Assembly (NCBI GenBank): GCA_048882045.1
Contig: JBHLRZ010000001.1
Location: forward strand, 69,693 to 133,692
Direction of reading: 5' to 3'
Source of the DNA: Candidatus Thorarchaeota archaeon
GTDB taxonomy: Archaea; Asgardarchaeota; Thorarchaeia; Thorarchaeales; Thorarchaeaceae
DNA length: 64,000 bases
Shown here: positions 9,716 to 11,258 of the stretch, one piece after another
How positions within the stretch are numbered: the stretch's first letter is position 1
Layout: every line of letters begins with the position of its first letter
Made by a program: the position numbers and the translations under genes
Notes under the pieces: generated by a model
The model's database searches: none
What the model was told of the DNA's origin: nothing
What the model saw: only the letters and a program-made list of their open reading frames with translations

Positions 9716-10111
9716 ATGGGAAACAAGCTACAATTAGAGCCAGAAGCTACACCTTCAGTACTTTCCAATATCCCAAACACATTACAATCATTCCTCATGA
9801 ATTCAATCAGGAAAAAGACTCGTGAAAGAAAGACGGTTCTGGTGGCAAGTAATAGTCTGGCAAATCGGTTCATCTTGGAGCAGTGGGGAATAAGAGCATC
9901 TCAGAGGAGGAGATACAAGAACCTCTTTGCATCAGTGCGTCAACGATGCAGAGCAATGTTCCATAACTATCTCGCCCGTGGGAAAACAGAATGGGTTTCT
10001 GAAAGCAATAGGATAATCTTTGGTGTGTACAAGTTCGATGAGATAAGAGGGAATCTCATCTTGGCATTCGTGAAAGTTACATCTGAAACTGAGTGGTCAT
10101 TGCCAAGATGA
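9716..10111 (+). CDS. Hypothetical Arg-rich protein, doubtful
   Basis: 131-aa ORF convergent on the GTPase gene. No motif recognised; it may be non-coding. Confidence 0.25.
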   Translation: MGNKLQLEPEATPSVLSNIPNTLQSFLMNSIRKKTRERKTVLVASNSLANRFILEQWGIRASQRRRYKNLFASVRQRCRAMFHNYLARGKTEWVSESNRIIFGVYKFDEIRGNLILAFVKVTSETEWSLPR

Positions 10112-11002
10112 CTAAGCTTCACTCTCGATGCAAAGCAACTGTTCAACTGGCATATCAGGAACATCTATCTCAAAGAATTCAGATAATACTTGGACAAGTA
10201 TTTTGAGCAGATCCTCTCTGTAAGCCAAATCAATCGCCACCATTGCATGAGAAGATGACCCCATGACCTTGCTGATCGCTGTTGGATCTAGGGAATTGGG
10301 AGTGTCCTGTTTGTTAGCGAATATGACTATGGGCATCTCAGGATGCTCTTCCAGAATTTCGGAGAAGATTGTCTTTGAAGAGATGATATTCTTCAGGGTG
10401 GAGTCAGTTATTAGGAATATCATGTCTGTCAAAGAAAAGTCCCAGAGTTTACCAGCAGCCTCACGTCCCGCAAAGTCGAAAATCACTATATCGTAGTTTG
10501 CGAACTTCATGTCCCTAATGACTTCACAATTTACTGCGATTGTTGGAATATGAGTGTCTGGAGGTTCTATTCCCATCAGAAGATGAAGAAGTGAAGTCTT
10601 TCCGACTCCCAGATTTCCTACTAGAGCAATCACGAATTGAGATTGGACAAAACGCGCAATGATTTGTTCATAGTTCTCCTTTACATATTTCATTGTTTGT
10701 TTTTCCATGATTGAGCGAAGTGAAGTTGCGGCTCGATTTATCTTGCTGATTGTATCATCATCATTGGTGTCGTCATCAACTACAAAGATGATTATTCCTT
10801 TGCCACATTCTCGACTCACGAATTTGTATTCTCCGATAGTGACTGGCTTGTATTTTAAACGCTCAGATTTCTTGATTAACTTCTCAAGTTGTGACAGATA
10901 CTGCTTGATAATCTTCATCGGAATTGAATCCGCCCAATATTCTGATGATGCAATCTTGCGCCTGTTCTTTGCATTCAGCAAGATTGTGCTATATATCATC
11001 AC
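10112..11002 (-). CDS. Ras-superfamily small GTPase with N-terminal ~120-aa longin/roadblock-like extension
   Basis: G1 GNLGVGKTS, switch-I Thr (HIPTIAV), G3 DFAGRE (Ras-like DTAGQE with Gln to Arg), G4 NKQD. The N-terminal region is rich in beta-strands and helices (IIIFVVDDD...). Confidence 0.8.
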   Translation of the reverse strand: MMIYSTILLNAKNRRKIASSEYWADSIPMKIIKQYLSQLEKLIKKSERLKYKPVTIGEYKFVSRECGKGIIIFVVDDDTNDDDTISKINRAATSLRSIMEKQTMKYVKENYEQIIARFVQSQFVIALVGNLGVGKTSLLHLLMGIEPPDTHIPTIAVNCEVIRDMKFANYDIVIFDFAGREAAGKLWDFSLTDMIFLITDSTLKNIISSKTIFSEILEEHPEMPIVIFANKQDTPNSLDPTAISKVMGSSSHAMVAIDLAYREDLLKILVQVLSEFFEIDVPDMPVEQLLCIESEA

Positions 11003-11137: not shown

Positions 11138-11258
11138 GCCGAGGTAGCCAAGCCCGGTTCACGGCGACAGCCTGGAACCAACAGTCGTACGAGCGATTGT
11201 CGCTCAGACAGCTGTTCTCCAATAGGAGGCATGAGTTCAAATCTCATCCTCGGCGCCA
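11138..11258 (+). tRNA. tRNA-Ser(GGA) with 32-nt intron at canonical 37/38 position, CCA encoded
   Basis: Manual fold: acceptor GCCGAGG/CCTCGGC, 3-bp D stem GCC/GGC, anticodon stem ACAGC/GCTGT, loop CUGGAA|intron|A giving anticodon GGA, long variable arm CTCC-AATA-GGAG, T arm ATGAG-TTCAAAT-CTCAT, discriminator G, CCA. Confidence 0.75.

Follow-up and report, generated by a model that had tools for sequence, protein, structure and literature searches.

A gene on the minus strand of a 64,000-nt stretch of Candidatus Thorarchaeota DNA (contig JBHLRZ010000001.1 of assembly GCA_048882045.1, positions 69,693 to 133,692; hereafter the window) encodes a 295-residue protein predicted to consist of an N-terminal longin domain fused to an Arf/Rab-like small GTPase (G) domain. 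In this protein an arginine, Arg179, occupies the position of the catalytic glutamine. The same arginine was found in a clade of Thorarchaeota homologues, where it is accompanied by further substitutions in the P-loop, switch I and switch II. By analogy with Ras and LRRK2, we consider it probable (about 60%) that proteins of this Arg clade act as slow GTP-binding switches that are largely insensitive to GTPase-activating proteins (GAPs), with a rewired hydrolysis step and an output mediated by the longin domain.

Arginine at the catalytic glutamine position

An earlier reading of this DNA from its letters and open reading frames (ORFs), referred to here as the original prediction, had proposed that the catalytic Gln of the G3 motif was replaced by Arg, unless alignment were to place the Arg elsewhere. 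When the window protein was aligned by phmmer with PDB chains, Arg179 fell without gaps on the catalytic Gln of DVGGQ in Arf1 (Gln71) and of DLGGQ in the Asgard protein ArfR (8oun), which is the position equivalent to Gln61 of Ras. The substitution is thus real and is at the catalytic position, and the window protein lacks the catalytic Gln.

Among the 114 family members with a readable G3, this position is occupied by Gln in 58 and by Arg in 37; the others carry Glu (6), His (4), Ile (3), Asp (3), Lys (2) or Leu (1). When positions 130, 179 and 183 were considered together, the combination Ser/Gln/Arg was found in 45 sequences and (Ile, Leu or Met)/Arg/Gly in 35. In a neighbour-joining tree, all sequences reading DFAGRE fell into a single crown clade of Thorarchaeota group A (one of three paralogue groups, described below), and the Arg is kept in 34 of the 36 members of this clade. 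Across five orthologous loci the residue is encoded by CGT (window), AGG, AGA, AGA and CGA. Because the amino acid was retained through this synonymous codon turnover, the comparison shows purifying selection on Arg179 at the amino acid level. Within group A as a whole, the Gln was evidently lost several times, yet Arg is the only replacement that became fixed in a large clade. A separate clade of group A (P0077, P0083, P0084 and P0092) reads DFAG[DE][DN] in the same motif.

Substitutions coupled to the Arg were sought by comparing the 36 sequences of the Arg clade with 51 Gln-type relatives. Only six alignment columns had residue sets that did not overlap between the two groups (Table 1). The P-loop and the two switches (I and II) hold five of the six, position 216 alone being in the helix that follows β4, and no such column was found in the longin domain (residues 1-119) in this comparison of 36 with 51 sequences. 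Judged by these columns, the clade did not decay; its nucleotide pocket was remodelled locally and in concert.

Table 1. Alignment columns that separate the Arg clade from its Gln-type relatives
Position	Region	Gln-type relatives	Arg clade
130	P-loop; Ras Gly12 / Rab Ser position	Ser	Ile/Met/Leu
149	Switch I	Glu	Thr/Ile/Ser
179	Catalytic Gln position	Gln	Arg
181	Switch II	Ser/Thr	Ala
183	Switch II, Gln+4 (equivalent by position to Arf1 Arg75 and the Rab Arg)	Arg	Gly
216	Helix after β4	variable	Leu

Distribution and history of the family

The distribution of the family was assessed in a scan that used one genome per GTDB species. The longin-GTPase architecture was present in many Thorarchaeota, and more distant copies were found in Hermod-, Prometh/Loki-, Hod-, Jord-, Frey- and Helarchaeota. 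In most homologues, which represent seven Asgard lineages, G1 starts at residue 128-135, preceded by a front domain of about 125 residues; a few of the homologue calls were truncated or extended at the N-terminus. Full-length matches were overwhelmingly records of Asgard metagenome-assembled genomes (MAGs), apart from two titled Crenarchaeota/Thermoproteota and a few labelled 'uncultured archaeon', and the bacterial records in the same scan matched the G domain only. The longin-GTPase family is therefore Asgard-specific.

In a wide alignment, the ancestral motifs of the family read GxGGVGKTT, PT, WDFAGQERFRxLW, TDS, ANKQDLPNA and VAID, so that the ancestral catalytic residue is Gln. Deep-branching Thorarchaeota genomes carry, at the syntenic site, a copy of the 'B' type with GEGGVGKT as P-loop and DFAGQE as G3. 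In four genomes, a B copy with these canonical motifs and an A copy stand in tandem (coordinates in Table 2). The canonical B copy shares about 43% identity with the window protein; the diverging A copy reads GESGVGKT and DFAGQE, a state that precedes the remodelling seen in the Arg type. At the six loci nearest to the window (L001-L006), only the A type was found, with Arg in four, Gln in one and His in one. These data suggest that in the lineage of the window a tandem duplication was followed by loss of the canonical B copy.

Two further sets of relatives were noted. A third Thorarchaeota paralogue group (C) shares about 35% identity and the longin-GTPase front end, and has GEGG[VT]GKT and DFAGQE motifs. 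Its genes are located elsewhere in the genome, and its proteins carry a C-terminal extension of 100-300 residues, for total sizes of 541-606 residues in L024, L026-L030 and L033 and of 395-398 residues in L025 and L031. A subgroup of longin-GTPases without the Gln (L034, L035 and L036, from Hermodarchaeota, Promethearchaeota and one Thorarchaeota MAG) has DLGGDD as G3 and GTRGVGKT as P-loop.

The G domain

The assignment to the Ras-like GTPases in the original prediction held and could be narrowed. The best Pfam match of the window protein was Arf (residues 121-250, E 1e-15, 58.1 bits against a cut-off of 22.3), followed by Roc (E 8e-10, 39.4 bits) and Ras (E 6e-8, 32.8 bits). SRPRB scored below its cut-off of 25 (E 4.2e-4, 20.2 bits), and Gtr1_RagA gave no match to the window protein in the Pfam scan. 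The top PDB sequence matches found by phmmer were Asgard ArfR (8oun) and Arf1. We accordingly class the G domain as a predicted Arf/Rab-like small GTPase, an assignment made by hidden Markov model (HMM) and PDB matches.

The domain has the Ras-like α/β fold, and the motifs G1, the G2 threonine, DxxG and G4 follow one another in the order of the Ras superfamily within about 170 residues. The GK[T] of G1, the PT of G2 (P152-T153), DxxG (DFAG, residues 175-178) and NKQD were invariant over 60 homologues, down to 45% identity. G1, G2, G4 and G5 had all been described as intact. This was upheld for G2 and G4; G1 deviates from the canonical form by Leu130, at the position of Ras Gly12 and the Rab Ser, and G5 is reduced to the invariant A255 inside 'VAID'.

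Several features set the domain apart from a standard Arf. The Arf-type switch II signature WDxGGQ is replaced by FDFAGRE in the window protein, and the ancestral WDFAGQERF of the family resembles Rab/Ras (compare DTAGQE), with an Arf-like LW after it. In place of the amphipathic helix that precedes the G domain of Arf proteins, a longin domain of 118 residues precedes β1. The arrangement of the Roco (LRRK2-like) GTPases, in which a COR domain follows ROC, is not found either: the protein ends 18 residues past the last helix of the G domain and carries no COR or other C-terminal domain.

The N-terminal longin domain

AlphaFold2 was run on the 60-sequence family alignment. The model of both domains reached a predicted local distance difference test score (pLDDT) of 86 and a predicted template modelling score of 0.82, and the model of the isolated N-domain a pLDDT of 92.9, so that the region, for which the original prediction had named disorder as the outcome that would count against it, is predicted to be ordered. 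By DSSP, the modelled N-domain contains strands at residues 2-9, 15-20, 53-55, 58-64 and 68-75 and helices at 28-50, 80-100 and 103-118. The resulting order, β-β-α-β-β-β-α-α, gives a five-stranded sheet with no N-terminal helix, as in longin domains. The roadblock/LC7 order, α-β-β-α-β-β-β, begins with a helix, and the N-domain does not follow it because its first element, from residue 2, is a strand. Of the longin or roadblock fold proposed originally, the element order of the model thus retains the longin and discards the roadblock.

Comparison with known structures pointed in the same direction, since the N-domain matched bona fide longin domains. The matches were headed by δ-COP (13.7), AP-3 μ (12.7), AP σ (11.7), AP-2 μ (11.6) and TRAPPC4 (11.5), followed by SYBL1/VAMP7 (11.2-10.7), Sec22b (10.7), sedlin (10.7), Ccz1 (10.2) and SRX (10.1). 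Sequence identity to the longins of the AP-complex σ/μ and COPI δ/ζ subunits is only 5-14%. A Pfam scan of the window protein and 31 family N-domains recovered no longin, roadblock or SRX family, and the longin-type HMMs (Longin, Clat_adaptor_s, Sedlin_N, Sybindin and SRP-alpha_N) gave no match in the 31 family N-domains at E values up to 10. The predicted longin fold is therefore visible in the structure model and not at the Pfam level. When a profile of the N-domain was run against 1.84 billion proteins, only 26 cluster representatives were retrieved, each matching at its N-terminus. The N-domain is a small and private sequence family with a clear fold.

In the model, the last longin helix (residues 103-118) enters β1 of the G domain after about one linker residue. 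Because this helix runs straight into β1, it would occupy the place of the Arf N-terminal helix. Throughout the family, β5 and α2 of the longin domain are joined by an acidic loop in which D80 hardly varies; the window protein has the strongly acidic sequence DDDTNDDD here (residues 75-82, window 10755..10778). Arg63, in the motif 'SRECG' of the longin domain, was considered as an arginine finger acting in cis, as in FLCN and NPRL2. It was rejected as a general mechanism because conservation of this residue, invariant in groups A and B, does not extend to group C or to homologues outside the Thorarchaeota.

Proposed mechanism and alternative explanations

Intrinsic and GAP-assisted hydrolysis by Ras-like proteins is classically crippled in two ways, by a bulky side chain at position 12 or by losing Gln61. 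Both changes are present in the Arg clade, which is why its members are predicted to be slow and GAP-insensitive, or else to use another chemistry. Because G1, G2, G4 and DxxG are intact, GTP and GDP would still be bound, and GTP/Mg binding would be retained. Given the bulky side chain at the Gly12 position and the missing Gln, which orients the attacking water, hydrolysis assisted by a canonical arginine finger would be abolished or strongly slowed. Arg179 itself would most likely contact the γ-phosphate and order switch II in the GTP state, in the manner that a 2026 preprint proposes for R1398 of LRRK2, described there as a γ-phosphate sensor (PMC13345514). The built-in longin domain would most likely mediate dimerisation or the docking of a partner, coupled to the nucleotide state; this role is suggested by analogy with SRX-SRβ, Rag-roadblock, MglB-MglA, Rab and longin-containing complexes of guanine nucleotide exchange factors and GAPs.

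Several points weigh against this proposal of a slow, GAP-insensitive switch. The tree that unites the DFAGRE sequences carries no support values. Elsewhere in group A the Gln is replaced by His, Lys, Glu, Asp, Ile or Leu, and the position may be merely relaxed. The expected effect on hydrolysis is drawn only from the precedents of Ras and LRRK2, and the sensor model of LRRK2 R1398 is itself a recent preprint (PMC13345514).

A bolder version of the proposal starts from human LRRK2, the Parkinson's protein. The PDB chains of the LRRK2 ROC domain read VWDFAGREEF, so that the hexapeptide DFAGRE is identical to that of the window protein and R1398 stands at the Gln61-equivalent position. Because the archaeal family was ancestrally Gln-type, this identity is convergent and not inherited. 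We regard as tentative, and as less likely than not, the further idea that a Thorarchaeota lineage converged on the LRRK2 solution as a mechanism, namely that a coordinated rebuild of five sites in the P-loop and the two switches put an arginine that senses or handles the γ-phosphate in place of Gln catalysis, within a GTPase wired to a longin domain.

The original prediction had offered a different role, in which Arg179 is a built-in catalytic arginine that neutralises the charge on the γ-phosphate in cis, giving efficient hydrolysis without a GAP and hence a self-timing switch. The strict retention of the Arg (34 of 36, through four codons) would fit such a role, as would the apparent relocation of a positive charge within switch II, where R183 was lost as R179 was gained. 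The LRRK2 preprint also names R1398 a 'catalytic arginine' (PMC13345514). The active site as a whole argues in the opposite direction. A Leu, Ile or Met appeared simultaneously at the Gly12 position, which in Ras is a classic block to hydrolysis. In Gα and MglA the Gln is kept, and it is switch I or a helical insert that provides the Arg; in the present case the Gln itself has given way to Arg, the residue that would orient the water is lost, and the arrangement of Gα and MglA is not present. The ROC domain of LRRK2 is a slow GTPase; the preprint states slow intrinsic hydrolysis only for the bacterial Roco protein of C. tepidum (PMC13345514). An efficient cis-catalytic arginine is for these reasons doubtful.

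The tandem B + A gene pairs raise another explanation, by which the A copy would be the non-canonical partner in a Rag-like dimer (A with B, or A with A, paired through the longin domains) and would be locked in one nucleotide state so as to regulate the other subunit, as in RagA/C. Longin and roadblock domains serve for dimerisation in Rag, Mon1-Ccz1, FLCN-FNIP and solved Loki Rag-like GTPases (homotetrameric in 8yl2), and the literature files longin-GTPase fusions as 'Rag-like'. This explanation is put in difficulty by the loci themselves, since a B copy is absent from all six crown-group loci (L001-L006) and from the 64-kb window, and by the Pfam scan, in which Gtr1_RagA did not recognise the window protein. 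We consider such a dimer decidedly unlikely. That the A copies without Gln are decaying or nucleotide-independent pseudo-GTPases kept as scaffolds, with Arg a neutral replacement, is highly improbable: the chemical diversity of the residues that repeatedly replaced Gln in group A would agree with it, but the invariance of GK[T], PT, DxxG and NKQD over the 60 sequences, the conservation of the Arg across synonymous codons and the intact, syntenic gene in every genome examined would not.

Comparison with published systems

The fusion of a longin domain to a small GTPase is not new, and its implied novelty in the original prediction was overstated, because Asgard fusions have been published since 2016. 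Arf-like GTPases of Lokiarchaea with a fused longin domain were reported as the ArfL group (Klinger et al. 2016, via Dey et al. 2016, PMC4917890), a group that Vargová et al. show not to be true Arf; 'Rag family GTPases with longin fused' were described by Liu et al. 2020; Rag/Arf-like GTPases fused to longin or roadblock domains were predicted with AlphaFold2 by Tran et al. 2024 (PMC10933270); and longin N-termini were noted among Asgard Arfs (AArfs) in a 2025 Nat Commun paper (PMC11914678). The window protein resembles these proteins in having an N-terminal longin domain followed by a small GTPase, in being restricted to Asgard archaea, in being Arf-like by HMM, in having NKQD as G4 and in carrying LW after switch II. 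It differs from them in that its clade has the Arg at the catalytic position and the coupled changes of P-loop and switches, of which the published descriptions consulted make no mention. Within a limited literature check, the Arg subclade and the substitutions coupled to it seem not to have been described. A full-text literature search for 'DFAGRE' returned irrelevant papers only. A 35-residue switch II peptide gave no matches among PDB sequences.

To our knowledge, LRRK2 is the only well-studied GTPase with Arg at the Gln61-equivalent position. Among 20 Roco proteins, an Arg at the position of R1398 is unique to LRRK2 according to the preprint (PMC13345514). The likeness extends to the start of the P-loop (GNTGSGKT in LRRK2, GNLGVGKT in the window protein) and to the Pfam Roc match given above. 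Unlike LRRK2, the window protein has no COR, kinase or repeats, and a longin domain stands in front of the G domain where LRRK2 has its leucine-rich repeats.

The pairing in the receptor for the signal recognition particle, SRα SRX with SRβ, also joins a longin-like domain to an Arf/Sar-related GTPase, and SRβ likewise lacks the catalytic Gln, with His in its place. In that system the two domains are on separate chains, SRβ has a transmembrane anchor, and SRX was not the top structural match of the N-domain. Rag/Gtr proteins carry a C-terminal roadblock, as opposed to the N-terminal longin here, and the roadblock protein MglB is separate from MglA, in contrast to the fused longin; Rag/Gtr and MglA retain the catalytic Gln.

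Researchers study the small GTPases of Asgard archaea, together with their longin/roadblock partners, as forerunners of the switches used by eukaryotes in membrane traffic and nutrient signalling. The window gene adds no new architecture to this field, and its protein was already in NCBI; neither the fusion nor the missing Gln will surprise specialists. The testable detail lies in the conserved Arg, the co-substitutions and the parallel with LRRK2. A syntenic and well-sampled orthologue series leads from the canonical GEGGVGKT / DFAGQE form through intermediates to the conserved Arg form, and amounts to a natural experiment on the rewiring of a Ras-like active site. The role of LRRK2 R1398 is still debated, and these small archaeal proteins could be tractable comparators. 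Were the mechanistic convergence with LRRK2 real, they would give the little-understood R1398 mechanism a simple and soluble model from prokaryotes, and the lineage nearest to the eukaryotes would hold an example of a longin-coupled switch that works independently of GAPs. Were the Arg form just a slow or locked switch, it would be ordinary, one more small GTPase without Gln alongside Rap, Rnd, RGK and Sar1/SRβ.

The gene and its genomic neighbourhood

The coordinates of the gene, its domains and motifs, the adjacent features and the tandem pairs are collected in Table 2. The ORF 10112..11002(-) of the original prediction is present and spans 296 codons from a GTG at 11000..11002. The GTG was not retained as the start, which is likely the ATG one codon inside. 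This ATG, at 10999, has GGAGGT 8 nt upstream and is almost certainly the start because all homologues begin MIYST. The stop codon is at 10112..10114. In total, 116 database homologues were found, typically of 295 residues; one of them, also of 295 residues, is 100% identical to the window protein and is titled 'MAG: ADP-ribosylation factor-like protein [Candidatus Thorarchaeota archaeon]' in NCBI. With these homologues and the Pfam Arf match, the ORF is evidently a real gene. Queries of the A, B and C types recovered this gene alone in the 64-kb window, which holds no further longin-GTPase paralogue detectable with them.

Table 2. Coordinates of the longin-GTPase gene, its parts and neighbours in the window, and of tandem B + A pairs in other Thorarchaeota loci
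Feature	Location	Strand	Basis or remark
Longin-GTPase gene	10112..10999	-	ORF list; identical 295-aa NCBI protein and 115 further homologues
Longin domain, residues 1-118 (predicted)	10646..10999	-	Structure model
Small GTPase (G) domain, residues 119-277	10169..10645	-	About 1 linker residue after the last longin helix
G1 / P-loop GNLGVGKT, residues 128-135	10595..10618	-	Leu130 codon 10610..10612
G2 threonine T153, within P152-T153 of switch I	10541..10543	-	Invariant alignment columns
G3 / switch II DFAGRE, residues 175-180	10460..10477	-	Arg179 codon CGT at 10463..10465
G4 NKQD, residues 229-232	10304..10315	-	Guanine specificity; invariant in the family alignment
Intron-containing tRNA	11138..11255	+	Rfam RF00005; divergent neighbour
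131-aa ORF (orf131)	9716..10111	+	Convergent neighbour, stop codons abutting
Tandem B + A pair, locus L007	1754-2644 and 2808-3695
Tandem B + A pair, locus L008	4944-5819 and 6001-6891
Tandem B + A pair, locus L012	5012-5887 and 6001-6861
Tandem B + A pair, locus L014	48-923 and 1057-1935

A conserved gene order was found in Thorarchaeota, comprising a 470-aa helix-turn-helix protein, a metallo-β-lactamase (MBL)-fold protein, an asparaginase, the tRNA, the GTPase, orf131 on the opposite strand, the ribosomal protein genes S13-S4-S11 and TiaS. The GTPase gene had been placed right next to the S13-S4-S11 block; the block does lie downstream of it, with orf131 in between. At the same position in 19 Thorarchaeota loci, tblastn found orf131 with 41-60% identity, and it is absent in L015 and L017. 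It has no Pfam family, and against the PDB it gave only weak Myb-like DNA-binding matches (E about 0.02, residues 68-106).

The neighbouring tRNA was detected by Rfam at 43.4 bits (E 3e-7). Its anticodon loop holds an intron of about 34 nt, and its variable arm is long. Both the intron and the distance of 135 nt given originally were confirmed, the distance being counted from the start end of the ORF at 11002 and not from the stop end of the gene. The tRNA is probably a tRNA-Ser, because its anticodon reads GGA by eye. ARAGORN found no tRNA in the whole 64-kb window, including the one detected by Rfam; since it missed this confirmed tRNA, other intron-containing tRNAs may have been missed as well.

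The synteny with the ribosomal protein genes is Thorarchaeota-wide and is absent in the loci from outside the Thorarchaeota (L034 onward). An operon link between the GTPase and these genes was set aside on this account, the arrangement being probably colinearity of the lineage. In one Njordarchaeota locus, an S11 gene lies about 3 kb from the GTPase gene. Between 6685 and 14775 of the window, translation and tRNA functions dominate. The members of this neighbourhood include TiaS (tRNA-Ile2 agmatidine synthetase), an asparaginase-family protein that is possibly GatD-like and an MBL-fold protein of the size of RNase Z, and the 470-aa neighbour contains a winged-helix domain.

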